Shown here: positions 4,783 to 48,258 of the stretch, piece after piece | How positions within the stretch are numbered: position 1 is the first letter of the stretch | How the letters are laid out: each line of letters opens with the position of its first letter | IMG/VR virus record: IMGVR_UViG_3300044673_000327 | Location: 1 to 64,000 of that record | Strand: one strand, 5' to 3' | DNA: 64,000 nt | DNA from: a virus | Notes under the pieces: generated by a model | Databases searched by the model: none | What the model saw: the letters and a program-made list of their open reading frames with translations, nothing else | Told to the model about the DNA's origin: nothing | Translations under genes and position numbers: made by a program

Positions 4783-5043
4783 TTAGGCAGAAGGCTCGGG
4801 AGCGGGAGCGTCGGGAACGATGCCCTTCACCTTCTCGACTAACTTCTGGATCTGCTCGACCCGTTCCGGTAATCCATCTTTAATATCCGCGAGTTCGTCG
4901 GCTTGAACCGTTTCATCGGTAATAGCCGATTCTAGAGCGGCAATAGCCGTATCGAGATCCGAGAGTTGCATTTTAATTTCCTCGATGGTTTTCGTTAGAT
5001 CGTCGTTCGTCGTCTGGACGATGACGGTTATTCGGGTAGGCAT
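4783..5043 (-). CDS. coiled-coil hypothetical protein
   Basis: 86-aa ORF with a heptad pattern. Confidence 0.6.
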   Translation of the reverse strand: MPTRITVIVQTTNDDLTKTIEEIKMQLSDLDTAIAALESAITDETVQADELADIKDGLPERVEQIQKLVEKVKGIVPDAPAPEPSA

Positions 5044-5115
5044 GGATTCAGCCCTAGGTTATTTACCCGCACTCATTCTACCATCGGGAGAGGGGTAGCA
5101 CGTCGATCTCTTTTC

Positions 5116-5418
5116 TTATCCCCTCTTCACGATCTCCTTGATTCTCCAACTCTCGATCCAGAACACCCGATCGCTTACCAAGCAGATGGGTTCGTGTTCG
5201 ACTATCTTCTCGGGAGGGATCTCGTCGCGGGCTACCCGACAGACCACGCCCCTAGAGTACGAACCATCGGAGTTAATGTATCTAACCTCGCTACCCGGTG
5301 GATACTCTCGGCTGTACGTGATGACATCGATACCCCGTTCTCTGGAGATGTCCGCCACGGGGATGTGATAGGTCGCGTATTTATTAGCCTTCGGGTATCT
5401 CAGCGTTAGCGTGGGCAT
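5116..5418 (-). CDS. hypothetical protein
   Basis: ATG start after a pyrimidine-rich leader. Confidence 0.6.
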   Translation of the reverse strand: MPTLTLRYPKANKYATYHIPVADISRERGIDVITYSREYPPGSEVRYINSDGSYSRGVVCRVARDEIPPEKIVEHEPICLVSDRVFWIESWRIKEIVKRG

Positions 5419-5460
5419 AGAGAGGAAGGAAGGAGAGGAGGTTTAATTTCTCTTTAAAAA

Positions 5461-5475
5461 TAGATCGTTAATCTA
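5461..5475. promoter_or_regulatory. candidate repressor operator TAGAT-N5-ATCTA
   Basis: Perfect palindrome; also at 15113, with one-mismatch copies at 8164 and 13756. Confidence 0.5.
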
Positions 5476-5514
5476 CTATTCTAATTATAGCCCTATCCCA
5501 TCCCCTAACCCCTC

Positions 5515-5542
5515 GGATAGCTACGCTACGGGGGGAGTGAGT
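5515..5542 (+). promoter_or_regulatory. motif B, GGATAGCTACGCT-N10-TGAR (copy 1 of 7)
   Basis: Exact 13-mer with fixed spacing, upstream of 5563. Confidence 0.75.
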
Positions 5543-5562
5543 ATTTAGTTAATGGAGAACCT

Positions 5563-6084
5563 ATGACGACCGCGACCGAAACCTTTGCCCCGATCCACGA
5601 ACGGGAGTTGATAGATTGTCAGATGCTTCTCGGTATCGATAAAAACGTGAGCTTTCTCTTCGATTCGACGGGGGATGTGATTCTCCGATATATCGACGGG
5701 GAAGGGTTCTCTCACTGGCGATGCGATATTTTCAGGGTATGTAATATCCCGCTCGGACAATACCCTCCAGCCCTTAAGAACTCTATCGATAGAGATCCGA
5801 GTGTTATCTACAAACTAGAGGCTTTGCGTCAAGCCCTCGATTGGGACGATAACCAGAAAGCTTTCGCGGACTACTGCCGCGCTAATTCGTTCCCGATCGG
5901 ACTCCGATCGCTCTCGGTTCCTATCAAAATCAGACGGGAAGATAACCGTGAACGGGAAGAGTGCGTTACTCTACTCGCCCCCCAGACCACCGTTCGGAAT
6001 CCCGACGAGTTTCAATTCTCGGGTAATTTCGACATCGATTCCAAACCCCCGACCTATTATCTATACGCGAGGAAGAAAACGTGA
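5563..6084 (+). CDS. hypothetical protein
   Basis: GGAG RBS, downstream of motif B. Confidence 0.7.
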   Translation: MTTATETFAPIHERELIDCQMLLGIDKNVSFLFDSTGDVILRYIDGEGFSHWRCDIFRVCNIPLGQYPPALKNSIDRDPSVIYKLEALRQALDWDDNQKAFADYCRANSFPIGLRSLSVPIKIRREDNREREECVTLLAPQTTVRNPDEFQFSGNFDIDSKPPTYYLYARKKT

Positions 6085-39948: not shown

Positions 39949-41277
39949 CTAGAACCCGAGTAGTTCCTGTAACTCCTTACTCCCCTGTTCGTCTAACTTG
40001 AGTCGGGAGAAGTCTACCCCGTTCCCATCACTTTCGGCGAGGAGTTCATCGAGACTCTTTTTCCCGAATCGTTTATTGAATTTGTCGCGTTCTTTCTGTC
40101 GCTTTTGTTGGATACGGTAATCGTAGGAGTTCGGGGTAATAGAGCGGTGAATTCTAGCGGCTCTCGGATCATCGTATCGGGCTTGTAGTTTCAATCGCTC
40201 CACGTCTCCCTCTCTCCACGTATCTAAAACCTCGAACCATGTATCGGGAGGGTAGATCGATTCCGATTCGGCATCGTTAAACGTCGTATTAGGATAACGG
40301 GTCGAGGTATCGTAATCGATGACGACCGGGTACTCCCCGTTCCGTTTCGAGAAAAAGTCTACCCGACCCGGATCGGTCGTCACCGAATGAAAAGCGGGAT
40401 CTTGCCAGTAAGAAGTATTCTCGTCGGTATAGCCACCAAAGAGTACATCATCGAGAAACTTCTGGCGATCGCCCTCGGTAGAGAAGTGCATCCCCCGTTG
40501 AATTCGAGAGCCATCGAGATCCGCCGATACCTCTTCGGGTAATTGACGAAGAGTTTTATCGATAGAGAGAATGTCTTTCTTTACGGTAGGCTCGATCTTC
40601 TCGTTAACTTGATTTAGCAAGTTAGCTCGTTGTACCGATCGTTTCTGTAATTCGGGATAGTAAGAATCAAGGTTGTCAATTAGATCTTTTACCTGTTCTC
40701 GATAAACGGGTAGATCCGAGTATCTAACACTCTCGGGAATATCGACTATTCCCATCTCTTTTAAACGTGGATAACTATTTAACGAATCGATAGGTACACT
40801 CGGATCGACTTTATCCCATAACTTTTCTTCTAACATTCTCGCCATCGGAATAGCGGACTCATCTCCTCCTACAGCCTCTTTATAAACGTCGGCGAGTTGT
40901 TGTTTGTCTCGGGTATTGTCAACGGGGCTAAAGTTTAACTCATCTAAAAAAGAGTTTAAAAATCTTCCGACCTTATCTTTAGAACGTTCGTCTACAACGT
41001 TATCGAATTCTTTGTATATAGATTTTAATTCGGGGATTTCGTTCTCGAAGGATTGTCTCGATACCGCTGTATCCGCCGCTTTCTCTTTTCCGAACCGGAG
41101 GTAGTCGTTATAAACCTTATATTCATAATCCCCCGCGTATTTCTGCAACTCGATACGGATCTGTTCTTCGGTTAGAGGTTTAGCGAAACGTACCGATCGC
41201 CCCTCTTGATACACGTTCTGGGGTTTACCGAGATCGGCTTGACGGGCTTCTTTAATTAATCTGGCGAATACACTCAT
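39949..41277 (-). CDS. protein with a C-terminal ADP-ribosyltransferase (R-S-E) domain
   Basis: IQRGM, FHSVTTD, ESESIYPPDTWFEV. Confidence 0.7.
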   Translation of the reverse strand: MSVFARLIKEARQADLGKPQNVYQEGRSVRFAKPLTEEQIRIELQKYAGDYEYKVYNDYLRFGKEKAADTAVSRQSFENEIPELKSIYKEFDNVVDERSKDKVGRFLNSFLDELNFSPVDNTRDKQQLADVYKEAVGGDESAIPMARMLEEKLWDKVDPSVPIDSLNSYPRLKEMGIVDIPESVRYSDLPVYREQVKDLIDNLDSYYPELQKRSVQRANLLNQVNEKIEPTVKKDILSIDKTLRQLPEEVSADLDGSRIQRGMHFSTEGDRQKFLDDVLFGGYTDENTSYWQDPAFHSVTTDPGRVDFFSKRNGEYPVVIDYDTSTRYPNTTFNDAESESIYPPDTWFEVLDTWREGDVERLKLQARYDDPRAARIHRSITPNSYDYRIQQKRQKERDKFNKRFGKKSLDELLAESDGNGVDFSRLKLDEQGSKELQELLGF

Positions 41278-41321
41278 CGGGGTAGAGGGAGAACAAGACC
41301 CCGAGTAGTATTCCTAGATCG

Positions 41322-42167
41322 CTAGAATATCGAACGTATCGGTAGTATCTTGGCTATCCGATTCTTATTGTCGAGAGGAAGATATTCTTTGGAATAAAGA
41401 TTTCTCTGTACCTCGGGCATAAAACCACCGGAAACCTTTCGTTCCCGATCGCCCATCTCGTCCCATTTCAAAACCGTACCCGATCTTTTAGCGTTTTCTA
41501 TCTCTTCATCCGTGGGTTTCGACTTAAGTTGCACCGATTCGATCGTGTAGAAAGGATTTCGTTCATCTCCCCAATATTGGAATTCTACGAATGGAGAGGT
41601 CACGCGGTTTTTCTCCATCCCCCGCCCGGTATGAAATCTATCCCAGAGATCTCGAACGTTCTCGGGATCGGCGGAAACCAAAGGAACTTTCCCCCAATCG
41701 CGGATCGAATCCCCGATCGAAAGAGTGCTTTTTTCTAGAATAGCGGGGTTCATTTTAATAACCGATGTCTCTACTAACTCGCCCCCGATCGAACCGTTAT
41801 TGCCGATAATATCGGGTCTAGCGTAGGGTTGGTTATTTTTTTCGGGGGCGATAAACCCGTAAATCGGGGAAACGTCGGGGTTCGCCCACTCGGGTCGCCA
41901 GTAATCGTAGTACACGAATTTTCTAGTATTCATCGCCCCTTTTCGCTCTCCCGCCCCCGGTCGATAGCCCTCTTTTAAGATCGAGCTAACGTGTTGACGG
42001 GGAGCTATGATATAGGGAACCAACGCGCCGCTCTCTCCCGATAAAAAGCGATCGAGTAGAGCGAGACGTTTATTATAATTCCCCGAAGAGATCTCGTCAT
42101 AACTCCCTAAAGGATAACGAGCATCATAATCCTGTTGACGGTAAAGATCGGCGAGATTGGAAGACAT
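41322..42167 (-). CDS. DUF3626-like (possible ART-fold) protein
   Basis: SILKEG, PIYG, TLSIGDS, FVEFQYWG. Confidence 0.5.
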   Translation of the reverse strand: MSSNLADLYRQQDYDARYPLGSYDEISSGNYNKRLALLDRFLSGESGALVPYIIAPRQHVSSILKEGYRPGAGERKGAMNTRKFVYYDYWRPEWANPDVSPIYGFIAPEKNNQPYARPDIIGNNGSIGGELVETSVIKMNPAILEKSTLSIGDSIRDWGKVPLVSADPENVRDLWDRFHTGRGMEKNRVTSPFVEFQYWGDERNPFYTIESVQLKSKPTDEEIENAKRSGTVLKWDEMGDRERKVSGGFMPEVQRNLYSKEYLPLDNKNRIAKILPIRSIF

Positions 42168-42301
42168 GACGGGGCATGGAAAACAAGACCCCGATTAGTA
42201 TTCCTAACCGAAAGAAATCGGTACGATCGCCCGAAGGAAATGTACCGATAATTTACTTGAGGTTATGTCCCTAGTCTTGAAACTCGAATCGGGTCAACGA
42301 T

Positions 42302-42349
42302 CTAGTTCTGGAACGAACGAACGATCGTGCAGAAACGTTCATCGACAAG
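42302..42349 (-). pseudogene. displaced original 3' end of the major capsid gene
   Basis: Reads LVDERFCTIVRSFQN-stop, versus LIDERFCTIVRSFQN-stop at 43440-43487. Confidence 0.9.
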
Positions 42350-43297
42350 TTACCCGTCTTTATTAGTATTCCTGTGTTTGCCCGTGGCGATTAAACCGAC
42401 CGTCGCTCTAGACACCCCGTAAAGTTTGGCGATCGCCCCCTGTGTCATCGCTCGGGCTTCCCATATCTTGCGAATTTCTTCTACCTGTTCGTCTGTCAAC
42501 TTGCACCGAGGATTGTTCTCTCCCGCTAGTAACCCCTTTCGGACTTGTTTGTTTCGTTCGATAACTTTATCCGGGCGGGAAACTCCTTTCGCTCGAAGAA
42601 TTCTTTCTACAGTTCCGATCGATAATCCCACCACATCGGCTATTTCTCTACTAAAACAGCCATCTTGCCGCATCGAGATTATTGTTTCAGCGATCGCTTC
42701 ATTAGTTCTAACACCTGTATTGAAATGCTCTTTAACTTTCTTGTTCAGGATTCGCTCGAAATAGTCACGGCTATTATCCTGATGGGTTCCGATTTCGAGG
42801 TGGTCGGGATTAATGCAAAGTTTATTGTCGCATTTGTGACGTATTAGCTTTTCTTTAGGAACTGGTTCTTTAAAAACCTCGTAGCTTAATCTATGGGCTT
42901 GCCATATCTTGCCGTGATAACCGATGCTTCCATATCCCGCGCTGGTAACTCCACCAATCCAATTCCAACAATCGGTTTCACGATCGATTACTCGTTTCTG
43001 TTTTAGTCGAACTTGAATAGATTCTCCTCGGTGACGTGGGCGATCACCTAAAACTAAATGCTCTGGGTTAACACAATGATTATTTTTACAGGTATGGTTG
43101 ACGATCTTTCCCTCGGGAATAGATTCAAGTTCGTTATAAATGCAATACGAGAGACGATGAGCCATTACCGTTTTTCTGTTGATATGCGTCGTTCCAAACC
43201 CATCCCAATTGATAGCGGCTATCCAAAGCCAGCATCCATCGGGATCGGAACGCTTGTCGATCTTGGAATGAAACCGATCTACAATTTCCTGTTTCAT
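42350..43297 (-). CDS. free-standing double-HNH homing endonuclease
   Basis: Two CWxW...AHRLSY...HxCxN..CxNPxHL units plus a C-terminal KLT...HTH. Confidence 0.92.
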   Translation of the reverse strand: MKQEIVDRFHSKIDKRSDPDGCWLWIAAINWDGFGTTHINRKTVMAHRLSYCIYNELESIPEGKIVNHTCKNNHCVNPEHLVLGDRPRHRGESIQVRLKQKRVIDRETDCWNWIGGVTSAGYGSIGYHGKIWQAHRLSYEVFKEPVPKEKLIRHKCDNKLCINPDHLEIGTHQDNSRDYFERILNKKVKEHFNTGVRTNEAIAETIISMRQDGCFSREIADVVGLSIGTVERILRAKGVSRPDKVIERNKQVRKGLLAGENNPRCKLTDEQVEEIRKIWEARAMTQGAIAKLYGVSRATVGLIATGKHRNTNKDG

Positions 43298-43385
43298 AGA
43301 ATCATCTCATTGTCGTGTCTCTTTATTATGCCATGTATCGAGCGTAATCAGCAATCTATATGATTATGTAGCTTATAATAGAAAT

Positions 43386-43413
43386 AAGCCTCTTGGAATT
43401 ATCCAAAAGGCTT
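43386..43413 (-). terminator. hairpin terminator after the capsid gene
   Basis: AAGCCTCTTGGA...TCCAAAAGGCTT inverted repeat. Confidence 0.6.
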
Positions 43414-43439
43414 ACTGTGTCTAAAATCTAGTTGTTGTT

Positions 43440-44639
43440 CTAGTTTTGGAAAGAGCGTACAATTGTACAAAAACGTTCGTCAATTAGCTCGAACGACCCG
43501 AAGATCTGCCAAATGCAGATAATGAACCGTTGGAAGTCATCGTTGGAGTTCATGAGGATACGCGGGCCATCTCCACCGATACCGACCCCGATACACTGCG
43601 GGCCGAAAACGATCCCGAGTTCGGCGGTACGAGCGGCGGAACCACCGGTCACACCCGCGGGTTGGTTGGAGTAGTTCACCGTGACGGTAGCTTTAGGCAT
43701 ATTGGTCGTGGTGAAGTAGCGGATACCGTTGAACACGAAACCGGAGGGCATCGTTTGAGCGCCGAGCATATCGATCATCTGACCACCGGCGAGACCCGCG
43801 AACCAAGTCGAGCTAGACTGACCGACGGGCATACCACCACCACCGATCTGCGGGATAGACATCGGTTCGGCTCCGACTCCCATACTGGAGACGGGGATAT
43901 TACCGGGGTAGCGGGTGATCTCGCGGAAGTCTTTATCGGCGCGGAGATCTTGCAGGAAACGGGGGGAGCAGAGACACCAGTAGTTACCGTCCTCGAAACG
44001 GGGTACTAACCGTTCGGACATACGGGTGTTCACCTCTTCCATGAAGTTGACGGTGATCTTGGGAACCTTCGATCCGTAGACGGTGCTAGAACCGATGTCC
44101 ACGGTCGCGCCATCGGCGAAACCACCGGGGTTGTAGACGAAGGTGGATTTCAACATCTCGTTGATGTAAACCCGATCTTCCCAACGACGGTAATCGTCGA
44201 GGAGATTAGCCGAACCGATCGAATCGTGGAAAGCCTGAGCGCCGTAATCCCAATATTTCCGTTGCGCCGTCATCAATTGTTGGATAGGGATCTGGAACGT
44301 CGCGGGGGTGTTCGGGCTATCGATCGCCGACGGTCCGGTGTACTCCCGGAGGGTCATGATCACCTTGTCTTTGTCGAACCCGCGGGCGTTACCCACACCG
44401 ATCGTTTGGGTCTGACTACGTTCGCGAGCCGTTTTGGTTAGACTCTGCTCGCGGTTGGCGGAACTGAGTTCTTTATCCGCCCAGAACGCGGGACGATCGA
44501 GTTGCACCGAATCACCCGGGCCTTTGGTGTGGTCGTACATGACGCGGGGACGGGTGATCAGTTTAGAGATATAGGTCGGGACGGGGCGGAATAATTCAGC
44601 GCCGAGAATTAACGGAACATCATTATCGATAAAGCTCAC
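43440..44639 (-). CDS. major capsid protein
   Basis: 399 aa; follows portal and scaffold; biased codon usage; AGGAG RBS. Confidence 0.8.
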   Translation of the reverse strand: MSFIDNDVPLILGAELFRPVPTYISKLITRPRVMYDHTKGPGDSVQLDRPAFWADKELSSANREQSLTKTARERSQTQTIGVGNARGFDKDKVIMTLREYTGPSAIDSPNTPATFQIPIQQLMTAQRKYWDYGAQAFHDSIGSANLLDDYRRWEDRVYINEMLKSTFVYNPGGFADGATVDIGSSTVYGSKVPKITVNFMEEVNTRMSERLVPRFEDGNYWCLCSPRFLQDLRADKDFREITRYPGNIPVSSMGVGAEPMSIPQIGGGGMPVGQSSSTWFAGLAGGQMIDMLGAQTMPSGFVFNGIRYFTTTNMPKATVTVNYSNQPAGVTGGSAARTAELGIVFGPQCIGVGIGGDGPRILMNSNDDFQRFIICIWQIFGSFELIDERFCTIVRSFQN

Positions 44640-45140
44640 GGTTTTGACTCCTAGCTAGGAAGAATAGGTTGGAGTCAAGTGGTAGTTACCAATCCCTCAC
44701 CGTTGTTTTTTCCGAAAAGCGGTGGGGGATTTCCCTTTGAAAGACTTTGTAGAGAGGAGAGGAAGGAATGAAAGAGTAGATAAAGCGTTTTGGTAGAGAG
44801 TTGTTATCGGTAGTGGTTGTCGATCGCTCTATCGATTGAAAAGAGAAATTGAAAATTCATTCATTCCTTCCTTCCTCTTATCGAACGGAGTAGAGTATTC
44901 CTAGATACGATCGCTATCGAGAGATCTATCAAAAAGAAATCGATACGGATTCCCGAATAGAACCGTATCGATGAACCATCTATATGAACAAACCGTTTGG
45001 AAGAACCCGAGTGCTGTCGTGTTCGGAAATTAGTATTCCTCGATCGCCCGAGAAGGCAAAGAAAAGAACACGGGGTTTAATCCGTGTTCCACGCTCGCAC
45101 GACCACTTGGCAAAACCGATTGTCTATTCCCGTCCGATCG

Positions 45141-46622
45141 CTATCGGATCATCGCCCCTTTAGCGGTTCCGATCTTGCCCGCGCTCTCTAGGGCGGTGAG
45201 GGCGAGGTATCGTTTCGAGGGATCGATCGCCGATATGCCACCTCGGGGAACCGCGTTCGTCCCGTAGGGAGCGGCTTGACCCGAGGGTAATTCGGGACGG
45301 GTGACGTTGATAGAGTTCGTCGGGAGTTCGTTGCCGATACCCTCGGGGAAAACGGTACGGGGATCGATACCCTTGCGGGCGAGATGTTTGGCGTAGCTCG
45401 CCTTATCCGCGGGCGATAGGGCTTTCGGATCGATGCCGACGATCGAATTATTCGGGTTCGGGGGAGTGGCGGGAGGTAACGCCGCTCTCTCGGGTTGACC
45501 GCCCATCGGGATCGCTTGTTGCTGTCCCCGAACGGGTTGTTGCCCCCTCCGTTGCATCTCGATACCGTACTGCCGCTCGATGAGGGCTTTCTGTACCTCG
45601 GGTTGTTGTAATCGGGGGTCGTTAGGATCGATACCGTTCTCGGAGATCGCCGCGCCTAAAAGAGCGCCCATGAGTTGTTGTTGCTTCTCCACCTGAACGA
45701 GGTTAGCGAAATACTCGTTGAGTTGTTTCGGATCGGTGAGAAGATCTTGCATCTTATCGTGACGTTTCTCTAGTTGTTCGTACCGCTCGACGTGGAGAAC
45801 GAGATCCTTGAGGAATTCCTGATGCGAGATAAAGTATTTCACGTACTCGACGATCGCCGCCGCCTGACGTTGATTGAGATCTTCGAGCTTGGCGTGGGAC
45901 TCGTTGAGAAGTTCGGCGATCTGGGCGATCGGGAGGTTGAACGCTTTCTCCAGTTCGATCGCCGAAGCGAAACCCTCCGAGGAGATTTTACTTACGGGTT
46001 GACTTTGACTTTGACTTTGATTTAGGTTTTGAGCCTGTTCTTGAATTCCGTTGCTGTTTAAACTGGGTGTAGGTTGGGAAAAGCTGGGTTGCTGTTGTCG
46101 CGGATAGGTCGGGTGGTACTGGTGCGAGGGAGTCACGTAATCCGGGGCTAAACCGTTGGAGTTCGGGTAAGCTACCGGAACCGTCCCCGGTTGTCGATTG
46201 ACCAACATCTGAGCCTGGTACGGGTAATCCGGCGAGGTATTCTGGGCGGATCGAATTCCCTCCTGCATAAACCCCTGCACCTCCCGATAGCCCATCGGAC
46301 GGAGATCCCGCGCCTGTCCCCAAGGTTCCGAGTATTGTGGCGTTGGGATATATTCCTGTTGCCTGTAATGGGGTGTAATTGTAGGCGGGGTTGATACCGG
46401 GGTTTGTAGATACCCCGTATTTTGTACCGGTGAGGTATTCGAGTATTGCGGGATCTGATAGGTTTGTTGCGGCTGGTACGGAACCATTTGCGCCGTTTGC
46501 ACCGGTTGTAGGTTCAGCGTCTGGACTTGCTGAGGATAGTCCGGCGATATAGTCATCGTAGGCGCTGGAGCCGGTTGGGAAGGGGTTATCGGTTGGAGTT
46601 GCGGGTTCGATAGGTCTGACAT
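45141..46622 (-). CDS. scaffold-like protein (Gln/Pro-rich plus coiled coil)
   Basis: Lies between portal and capsid genes; start uncertain. Confidence 0.65.
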   Translation of the reverse strand: MSDLSNPQLQPITPSQPAPAPTMTISPDYPQQVQTLNLQPVQTAQMVPYQPQQTYQIPQYSNTSPVQNTGYLQTPVSTPPTITPHYRQQEYIPTPQYSEPWGQARDLRPMGYREVQGFMQEGIRSAQNTSPDYPYQAQMLVNRQPGTVPVAYPNSNGLAPDYVTPSHQYHPTYPRQQQPSFSQPTPSLNSNGIQEQAQNLNQSQSQSQPVSKISSEGFASAIELEKAFNLPIAQIAELLNESHAKLEDLNQRQAAAIVEYVKYFISHQEFLKDLVLHVERYEQLEKRHDKMQDLLTDPKQLNEYFANLVQVEKQQQLMGALLGAAISENGIDPNDPRLQQPEVQKALIERQYGIEMQRRGQQPVRGQQQAIPMGGQPERAALPPATPPNPNNSIVGIDPKALSPADKASYAKHLARKGIDPRTVFPEGIGNELPTNSINVTRPELPSGQAAPYGTNAVPRGGISAIDPSKRYLALTALESAGKIGTAKGAMIR

Positions 46623-48258
46623 AGCCGAGTTCGTTAAATATAGTTTCTAGGGAACGCTGGATCATCGGAACCACCGGCAGACTCGCCGATAGCGGTAAAC
46701 CGGGGTTAGCCTGATCGGGAAGTTGGAGAAGGTTTTGGTAGATCCCGAGCAATTGTTGTGTCGTACCCGCGACCGCGTTGAGATAGCGGAACGGATACCC
46801 ACCACTTAACATTCCTATCTTTTCCTTCTCCGTCTTCTCGGGGAAAAGGAAAGTCAGGGCATCGAGCGATCGCACACCCAACTCCTGAAGGTTACGGGTA
46901 ACGATAGATTTCTTCTGGAGATCGTCGGGACTATCCTCGAATACAGAACCTTTCCATCGCCACTCGATCGTTCTCTTACCGAGGGGGGGCAAGCCGAAAA
47001 CACCCTCGGGTAGGGGAGTACCCGCTTGCATCATGGCGTTAAACTCCTCGACCGATACGGGTTCGGTATTCGGATCTCTACCGAGGGCGATCGTCAGACT
47101 TCTCAGGAATAGATCTTCCTCGATCGCTAGAATCTTCTCTAAAACCTTACAGATACCGTGGGTGTAGATAGCGACGGCTTTTTTCTTCGCGGTCGTGGCG
47201 ACCTTACCGTACACCGTCTTCATCTCGTAAGCGGTAGCGGACGCGTGAATCCCCCGCTCGTCGATACCCCCGAGGGCGAAGTGGATAGCCTCCCGCTCCT
47301 GTTGGACGTGATTGAACTGATCGGGACTCACGGGATCGGGGGTGATAAAAGCGAATCGCTCATCCGCCCCGACGTTACCGATCACCTGCTTGAGTCGGAA
47401 TCCCTTCGAGGTCATTCCCCCGCGTCTGGGATCGCCCTTACGGGTGGAGAACGAGTTATTGCCGTACCATCCCGAGTTAGCGGCGACGGTATTGGCGCGG
47501 TTGAGATTGCGGGAACCCCATCCCCCCGCTTCCTGTAGTTCGGAGGGAGATCGGGTACTGACTAAAATGGGATGACCGAAGAAGGCGAGGTTCTCCTGAA
47601 TCGCCACGACATCGGCGTTGTGCGCCTCGATCTGGGAGCGGAACGGCTCGAAGTCCCCCGTACCCGGTTGACCCTTCCCTTTCGAGTTATTCTTGATCAC
47701 CACCACGGGGATAAACCCGAGGGAGTTCTTGAAGGTCTGTCTATTGGGTGTCTGGATCTCGGAATCGAACGAGGGTCGGGATTCGTACTCCTCCTGATAG
47801 ACGAGATCTTTGGTGAGGATTAATTTAATCCACGATTCTTTCTTCCAGTTATCGGTTTTGCCTACCTTGTTAAAAGGGTAGATCACGATCGCCCGCTCTA
47901 TTTCCCCATCGCGATCGTAGTAAACGCGATACTGTCCCCTCTCGTAGAAATAGATGTCGTAGGTGGCTTTCTTATTAGGACGAAAGTAGACGAGTTGTTC
48001 GCCCTTACAGATATGGATCTGCCAGATCCGTTCCATCTGTAAATCGAGTTGATTGTGCTTTACGATGTCCTCGATAAAACCCTTACGAGTCCCCCGATCG
48101 TCATCTTGAGTGGGGTAATATTCTACCCCGGCTCTCAATCCGAACATGGTCATTTGAGAGACGTGGTTCTGCACCACCATCGTCCGCGCCTCTTCCTCGT
48201 TCGGGAAAGACTCGGGGTAGAGGTAACTATTAACGAGATCGTCTAGGGTCGCTGACAT
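45988..48258 (-). CDS. portal protein
   Basis: Size and synteny; NSLGFIPVVVIKN motif; low-complexity C-terminal tail. Confidence 0.8.
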   Translation of the reverse strand: MSATLDDLVNSYLYPESFPNEEEARTMVVQNHVSQMTMFGLRAGVEYYPTQDDDRGTRKGFIEDIVKHNQLDLQMERIWQIHICKGEQLVYFRPNKKATYDIYFYERGQYRVYYDRDGEIERAIVIYPFNKVGKTDNWKKESWIKLILTKDLVYQEEYESRPSFDSEIQTPNRQTFKNSLGFIPVVVIKNNSKGKGQPGTGDFEPFRSQIEAHNADVVAIQENLAFFGHPILVSTRSPSELQEAGGWGSRNLNRANTVAANSGWYGNNSFSTRKGDPRRGGMTSKGFRLKQVIGNVGADERFAFITPDPVSPDQFNHVQQEREAIHFALGGIDERGIHASATAYEMKTVYGKVATTAKKKAVAIYTHGICKVLEKILAIEEDLFLRSLTIALGRDPNTEPVSVEEFNAMMQAGTPLPEGVFGLPPLGKRTIEWRWKGSVFEDSPDDLQKKSIVTRNLQELGVRSLDALTFLFPEKTEKEKIGMLSGGYPFRYLNAVAGTTQQLLGIYQNLLQLPDQANPGLPLSASLPVVPMIQRSLETIFNELGYVRPIEPATPTDNPFPTGSSAYDDYIAGLSSASPDAEPTTGANGANGSVPAATNLSDPAILEYLTGTKYGVSTNPGINPAYNYTPLQATGIYPNATILGTLGTGAGSPSDGLSGGAGVYAGGNSIRPEYLAGLPVPGSDVGQSTTGDGSGSLPELQRFSPGLRDSLAPVPPDLSATTATQLFPTYTQFKQQRNSRTGSKPKSKSKSKSTRK

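Follow-up and report, generated by a model that had tools for sequence, protein, structure and literature searches.

A capsid gene with two 3' ends: a probable gene-end-replacing HNH endonuclease cassette in a metagenomic phage

Replacement of a gene end by a mobile endonuclease unit is already known in mitochondria and in yeast (PMC3630166; PMC7282813). In fungal mitochondria, mobile open reading frames (mORFs) form gene hybrids with atp6 in Allomyces macrogynus and with atp6, atp9, cox2 and nad3 in Glomus (Beaudet et al. 2013, PMC3630166). WHO elements, which occur at the yeast aldolase gene FBA1, combine an endonuclease gene with an upstream 3' end of the target that confers resistance (Coughlan et al. 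2020, PMC7282813), and the displaced old 3' end supplies homology on the right-hand side when the element next homes (PMC7282813). Phages are well known to carry free-standing endonuclease genes next to essential genes, among them capsid genes (PMC2988022; PMC10448857), and in collaborative homing such an endonuclease is the neighbour of a group I intron that lacks an open reading frame (ORF), as is the case for cyanophage psbA and F-CphI (PMC6083498; concept PMC2988022). In the phage homing literature that we searched, we found no published phage example of an endonuclease in the gene-end-replacing layout. Here we describe a locus with this layout in a stretch of 64,000 nt (positions 1 to 64,000 of the IMG/VR virus record IMGVR_UViG_3300044673_000327, an 85-kb metagenomic virus record), hereafter referred to as the window. 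The locus comprises a major capsid gene and an HNH_3-type gene directly behind it, and our reading of the sequence is that a free-standing homing endonuclease cassette probably brought in a foreign capsid end, by which the native end was displaced.

The 3' end of the capsid gene is present twice (Table 1). The copy that is in frame with the gene body encodes LIDERFCTIVRSFQN followed by a stop codon, and the second, orphan copy encodes LVDERFCTIVRSFQN followed by a stop codon, the two peptides differing by a single I/V exchange. The orphan begins right at the end of the TAA stop codon of the HNH gene and shares the HNH frame, in which it contains no ATG, GTG or TTG. In a repeat search of the region the pair ranked first among the direct repeats, its two members being offset by exactly 1138 nt. 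The initial annotation of this DNA had claimed that the capsid-end peptide is repeated after the HNH stop codon with one I/V change, that 12 of 48 nt differ and that 11 of 15 third positions are changed; direct reading confirmed the repeat and recomputation reproduced the counts exactly, the remaining difference being the first-position change behind the I/V exchange. Since 11 of the 12 differences are synonymous (P = 6e-7 under unconstrained change), the copies appear to have diverged while coding for a working capsid end. At their start they have only the dinucleotide CT in common, which fixes the junction to within 2 nt. The locus therefore has one capsid 3' end in frame upstream of the HNH gene and another downstream of it, which is the arrangement of a gene-end-replacing cassette.

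Codon usage and intergenic design both point to the orphan as the native end and to the in-frame copy as the import. The G+C content of third codon positions (GC3) is 0.27 in the in-frame copy (4/15), 0.60 in the orphan (9/15), 0.68 in the capsid body and 0.42 in the HNH gene. Among 15-codon windows of the capsid gene, GC3 is lowest in the in-frame copy (the minimum elsewhere is 5/15; binomial P = 0.001), and overall G+C content drops sharply at ~43490, from about 0.58 to 0.33-0.45. Past the orphan, a hairpin (~42217-42249), a T-run, a promoter-like motif (42197-42205) and the next gene, which starts at 42167, follow one another in what is the standard intergenic design of this phage. The hairpin is of the same style (hairpin, then TTTCTTT) as the one found upstream of the capsid gene at ~44925-44970. 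The motif has a 9-mer core, AGGAATACT, that is present at 12 sites of the window vs 0.65 expected, each of them on the minus strand, and looks like a late promoter or leader element; its sites (e.g. 37225, 41307, 42197, 44894, 45032 and 57621) lie on the coding strand of late genes, often after a hairpin and T-run. The extended form, AGGAATACTAATCGGGGTC, precedes several late genes, including those starting at 41277 and 37197, usually just after a hairpin and T-run. Past the in-frame copy there is instead a different kind of terminator, located just past the capsid stop codon and unlike the other terminators of the phage in style, followed by an AT-rich spacer of another kind. This spacer possibly holds its own promoter and ribosome-binding site (TTGCTG-N18-CATAAT, read by eye; a promoter scan did not call it). 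The earlier statements that the orphan has the codon style of the gene body and that each copy has its own downstream hairpin thus hold, and the anatomy and polarity proposed with them appear to hold as well: an AT-richer, putatively foreign 3' end, a terminator and an HNH gene, with the native end left as an orphan in its native context.

The opposite polarity, with the AT-rich in-frame copy as the native end and an HNH gene that carried along, on its downstream side, a fragment of the capsid end of its previous host, strikes us as very unlikely. While the composition signal spans only 15 codons and no empty allele was found, this alternative has to accept that the supposedly native end is the GC3-poorest window of the whole gene, and that the supposedly imported one fits the gene's codon usage and leads into the phage's own hairpin and motif design.

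The HNH protein consists of two tandem HNH_3 modules and two helix-turn-helix modules. Its Pfam matches are HNH_3 (2.3e-16, in two stretches), zf-His_Me_endon (5e-11) and HTH_7 (5e-6), and its PHROG matches (phrog_1872, 3593 and 826; E = 1e-42 to 1e-48) are families annotated as phage homing endonucleases; a sequence search of a structure database returned spurious repeat-protein matches only. The protein thus belongs to a recognised homing endonuclease family and is encoded by a separate ORF outside any intron or intein, as is typical of the free-standing type. In line with the earlier description of the insert as having neither intron nor intein, Rfam gave no match to the group I intron model RF00028 at E up to 10 in 41000-46000, and the Pfam scan revealed neither a Hint nor an intein family. 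The capsid gene and the HNH gene are set apart by a stop codon and a terminator. The same RF00028 model scores 33-71 bits on the introns of relatives. The existence of these introns in the capsid genes of relatives, one of them only five codons upstream, is what speaks for a degenerate or unrecognised intron in the window, which would be spliced out from 43487 to 42350 so that the orphan is the real last exon. However, apart from the missing intron match, the HNH gene is preceded by only 142 nt of non-coding DNA and followed by none, so that a catalytic core would not fit, and the complete in-frame end with its stop codon makes splicing unnecessary. We consider splicing extremely improbable. 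No RNA run is among the sequencing runs listed as containing the stretch.

As the record is a metagenome contig, and as no contigs from the two runs containing the stretch aligned to it, the duplication could in principle be an assembly chimera of two strain variants. We see next to no chance of this: the two junctions have no k-mer in common by which they could be mis-joined, two runs contain every 31-mer sampled from 41800-44300 (though either may be the source sample), and the same capsid and HNH proteins stand on the record from JGI/IMG and from Logan. As far as can be judged, the duplicated arrangement is not an assembly artefact. A third rhizosphere run yielded a 163-nt contig that matches part of the HNH gene base for base (43043-43205), and a wastewater run yielded a 207-nt contig that is one base off part of the capsid gene (43672-43877); both are too short to bear on the layout.

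How does the locus compare with the described systems? The comparison with fungal mitochondrial gene-end replacement, already drawn in the initial annotation, is correct (PMC3630166). As in the mORF hybrids (PMC3630166), a gene core is followed by an in-frame C-terminal piece, foreign in the hybrids and putatively so here, an endonuclease ORF and a second C-terminal piece, in the hybrids the displaced native one. The two ends differ mostly synonymously, with 63.5% nucleotide vs 91% amino acid identity in Glomus atp6 (PMC3630166) and 75% vs 93% here. Unlike the mORF hybrids, the locus is in a phage rather than an organelle, and the enzyme is of the HNH_3 type, where mORFs encode LAGLIDADG or GIY-YIG enzymes. 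Only 15 codons are duplicated, a very short piece. The cassette also brings a terminator of its own, and its endonuclease has a gene to itself, whereas the mORF is read in phase with the host gene. With the WHO elements the locus shares the order of the unit, a putative old 3' end pushed downstream and the absence of both RNA and protein splicing (PMC7282813). WHO proteins, however, are intein-like LAGLIDADG-zinc finger proteins that act in meiosis and form clusters by repeated insertion (PMC7282813), while we see a single insertion and another enzyme family.

The closest phage parallel is the intronless homing of the T4 Seg and Mob endonucleases, in which a free-standing gene of the HNH family likewise lies beside a conserved essential gene (PMC2988022). 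A further likeness would be that flanking markers are co-converted in T4 and that the T4 carrier escapes cleavage because its own target sequence differs (PMC2988022); segD also adjoins the major capsid gene (genes 23/24) (PMC2988022). The T4 genes differ in being intergenic, with homologous flanks on both sides and no duplicated gene end, whereas the insertion described here lies inside the coding sequence.

By analogy with these systems, the following sequence of events can be proposed. During DNA break repair, a 1,138-bp cassette (43487 down to 42350, minus strand) would have been copied in between capsid codons 384 and 385. It would consist of the foreign last 15 capsid codons with their stop codon, the cassette's own terminator, the short AT-rich spacer and the HNH_3-type gene. 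Capsid translation would then run from the native body into the foreign end, with V-to-I as the one, conservative, change, so that the essential capsid protein stays complete. The native end would have been pushed downstream of the HNH gene as an untranslated orphan, together with its native terminator and promoter-like motif. The HNH enzyme would cut or nick cassette-free capsid alleles near codons 379-390, upon which the left end of the break would pair with the capsid body of a cassette-bearing genome and the right end with the orphan and the adjoining native DNA, in the way suggested for the yeast WHO elements. The carrier itself would be spared, since the contiguous target is gone: the capsid-side half is respelled at four of its first nine bases (12 of 48 overall) and the native half lies 1.1 kb away. 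For the founding event, the right end may instead have been joined by one-sided, illegitimate repair; in T4, homing with homology on one side only leads to illegitimate junctions at microhomologies (PMC2988022), and a process of this kind could account for the first insertion here. That the enzyme cuts the empty allele, that respelling confers immunity and that the cassette has moved repeatedly are all inferred.

The donor was probably an AT-richer relative with such an HNH gene just behind its capsid gene. Exactly this layout, the one to be expected of a donor, is displayed by the related locus L091 (capsid 55% identical), where a co-linear HNH gene on the same strand lies ~136 nt past the capsid stop codon, behind a terminator. 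The encoded protein has the double HNH_3 and two helix-turn-helix modules and is 27% identical over its full length (E = 2e-27); L091 has no orphan capsid end. Presence of an HNH gene at the capsid end therefore varies at the level of the family: L091 has a counterpart, three loci (L094-L096) have a remnant, and no HNH gene lies behind the capsid gene in L083, L084, L086 and L092, or in 80 more distant loci.

A second group of relatives couples an intron to the same site. In L003, L088, L089 and L090, an ORF-less group I intron (53 bits) interrupts the capsid gene at codon 379, five codons before the junction in the window, and an antisense HNH_3 gene (36-43% identical) lies right behind the capsid gene. 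These loci, in which the capsid is 52% identical (L003:2194-3078, and the same in L088-L090), look like a collaborative-homing pair of intron and endonuclease. Exactly such a pair is the likeness to collaborative homing; in the window, by contrast, the putative target is broken up by a respelled duplicate end and not by an intron. As the intron is only five codons from our junction, the same stretch of the capsid gene has been interrupted next to an HNH gene in these loci and in the window. The flanking DNA of L094, L095 and L096 is 95-100% identical to that of L003 and L088-L090, but these loci are without the codon-379 intron and retain an HNH remnant of ~100 nt. Right after 46 identical bases, their last six capsid codons and stop codon are spelled entirely differently while encoding the same peptide, which suggests that an HNH-linked exchange boundary inside the capsid end recurs in the family. 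In the comparison of L095:6151-6360 with L003:2471-3030 the all-synonymous respelling includes the pairs AGA/CGT and AGT/TCT.

To put the respelling in the window into perspective, we compared 83 distinct capsid genes of this family pairwise. Among the 351 pairs with at least 11 third-position differences in the last 15 codons, none has fewer than two amino acid changes (the mean is ~nine), while the two copies in the window have one. This hints that synonymous change at the capsid end exceeds ordinary divergence there, although the 351 pairs are not independent and mostly span deep clades. When all 15-codon windows across the gene with at least 11 third-position differences are considered, 25% have at most one amino acid change. 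AT-rich capsid genes are present among the relatives, with GC3 of 0.33-0.41 in L086 and L091. Given the non-independence of the pairs and the existence of such AT-rich genes, the composition of the donor may explain much of the respelling.

These numbers also bear on a simpler explanation, namely that the duplication is the scar of a single one-sided or illegitimate recombination with a divergent phage. The orphan would then be a leftover with no role in spread, the HNH enzyme would be inactive or cut elsewhere, and the synonymous differences would just reflect donor divergence. Because AT-rich capsid relatives exist, selection for immunity need not be invoked to explain an AT-rich spelling; T4 offers a documented case of illegitimate one-sided repair (PMC2988022); a quarter of the gene's windows with heavy third-position change have at most one amino acid change, as seen above; and neither a second HNH copy nor an empty allele was found. 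Against a mere scar stand the perfectly intact reading frame of the orphan with its near-only synonymous differences, which implies that the event is recent or that the sequence has been kept, the recurrence of HNH-linked respelling of the capsid end in relatives, and the fact that, in the C-terminal window itself, not one of the 351 pairs combines such synonymous change with so few amino acid changes. On balance we regard a one-off scar as unlikely.

Several observations weigh against the replacement cassette that we favour. The collections searched, viral contigs included, contain no second copy of the HNH gene, the nearest HNH protein in them being 41% identical, and recent mobility is for this reason conjectural. 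They also contain no cassette-free allele or close relative of this phage: an empty allele was found neither by capsid protein in viral contigs, nor by capsid alignment in genome contigs, nor with a degenerate DERFCTIVRSFQN pattern in viral and genome contigs, the reconstructed joined junction not having been used as a query. The nearest capsid is 65% identical (the closest homologues, P0002-P0013, are 51-65% identical), and the second member of its 90% cluster differs from the capsid protein of the window only in having V in place of M at the first position. With no close relative at hand, the labels 'foreign' and 'native' rest on composition and context over only 15 codons. Furthermore, the proposed model does not account for the right junction, which coincides exactly with the HNH stop codon and preserves the frame between the HNH gene and the orphan, nor for a copy of the late-promoter-like motif (AGGAATACTAAT) inside the last HNH codons, which ends 12 nt before the orphan. 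The latter may have been, in the donor, the promoter of whatever came after the HNH gene, in which case the donor would be a relative with promoters of this class.

A more far-reaching version of the cassette model is possible, though we advance it tentatively and with more doubt than conviction. A portable, respelled gene end could be a self-immunity module of phage homing endonucleases that is interchangeable with an intron: the same stretch of ~20 codons would be shielded by an intron and a neighbouring HNH gene in one lineage, and by an HNH cassette with a synonymous end in another. The spelling would in that case have been shaped by selection for nuclease resistance, as the synonymous excess might indicate, and the orphan would provide a homology arm whenever the cassette homes again.

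If the cassette model is true, gene-end replacement would join introns and inteins as a third means by which a selfish nuclease can inhabit an essential phage gene harmlessly. It would explain abrupt synonymous patches at the ends of phage structural genes, and would warn annotators that these ends can be foreign. The two capsid ends would also provide a compact natural pair of sensitive and resistant targets for studies of HNH_3 specificity. As intron-bearing relatives occur in this capsid family alongside others with a free-standing HNH gene, with a remnant of one or with an empty site, the family lends itself well to tracing how homing elements are gained and lost.

Table 1. Coordinates of the features discussed; positions are those of the window unless preceded by the name of a related locus.
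Feature	Position	Strand	Remarks
Portal-like gene	45988-48258	minus	first in late gene order
Scaffold-like gene	45141-46622	minus	between portal-like gene and capsid gene
Major capsid gene	43440-44639	minus	399 amino acids, GTG start; phrog_1357 major head protein, E = 4e-11
Putatively native part of capsid gene, codons 1-384	43488..44639	minus	GC3 0.68; homologues 41-65% identical
In-frame replacement 3' end, putatively foreign	43440..43487	minus	15 codons + TAG; GC3 4/15
Terminator-like hairpin of the putative cassette	43383..43416	minus	15-pair stem + T-rich tail, -23.8 kcal/mol, z = -6.15
AT-rich spacer upstream of HNH gene	43298..43382	minus	G+C content 0.33-0.35
Free-standing HNH_3-type homing endonuclease gene	42350..43297	minus	315 amino acids, own start and stop
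Late-promoter-like motif copy AGGAATACTAAT	42362..42373 (9-mer 42365-42373)	minus	in last HNH codons, ends 12 nt before orphan
Orphan, putatively the displaced native capsid 3' end	42302..42349	minus	15 codons + TAG; not translatable alone
Native-style hairpin + T-run, downstream of orphan	about 42211..42249	minus	read and folded
Native late-promoter-like motif, extended form AGGAATACTAATCGGGGTC	42197..42205	minus	ahead of next gene
Gene 3' of orphan, marking the native right flank	41322..42167	minus	281 amino acids, without family match
Further group I introns in capsid genes of relatives	L083:5117-5714; L091:4094-4478; L092:2552-3869; L095:2770-3873 and 4812-5850

The late genes lie on the minus strand, and two genes without a family match come after the HNH gene in the late order. 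The product of 43440-44639 is identified as the major capsid protein by its phrog_1357 match and by its place after the portal-like and scaffold-like genes. It is 41% identical to the matching open frame of Synechococcus phage S-EIVl (L001, KJ410740.1 60784-62010; 99% coverage, in one piece). In S-EIVl this frame is annotated as two hypothetical proteins on opposite strands, which is probably a mis-annotation. The cyanobacterial palindrome HIP1 (GCGATCGC) occurs 26 times in the window vs 1.6 expected occurrences, a ~16-fold excess that fits a cyanobacterial host; two of the 26 sites are inside the HNH gene.

Finally, the capsid genes of this family harbour group I introns at about four positions other than codon 379, in L083, L091, L092 and L095. 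Two introns stand in tandem in the capsid gene of L083, and those of L092 and L095 hold ORFs of 271-299 amino acids that are LAGLIDADG-like by motif alone.

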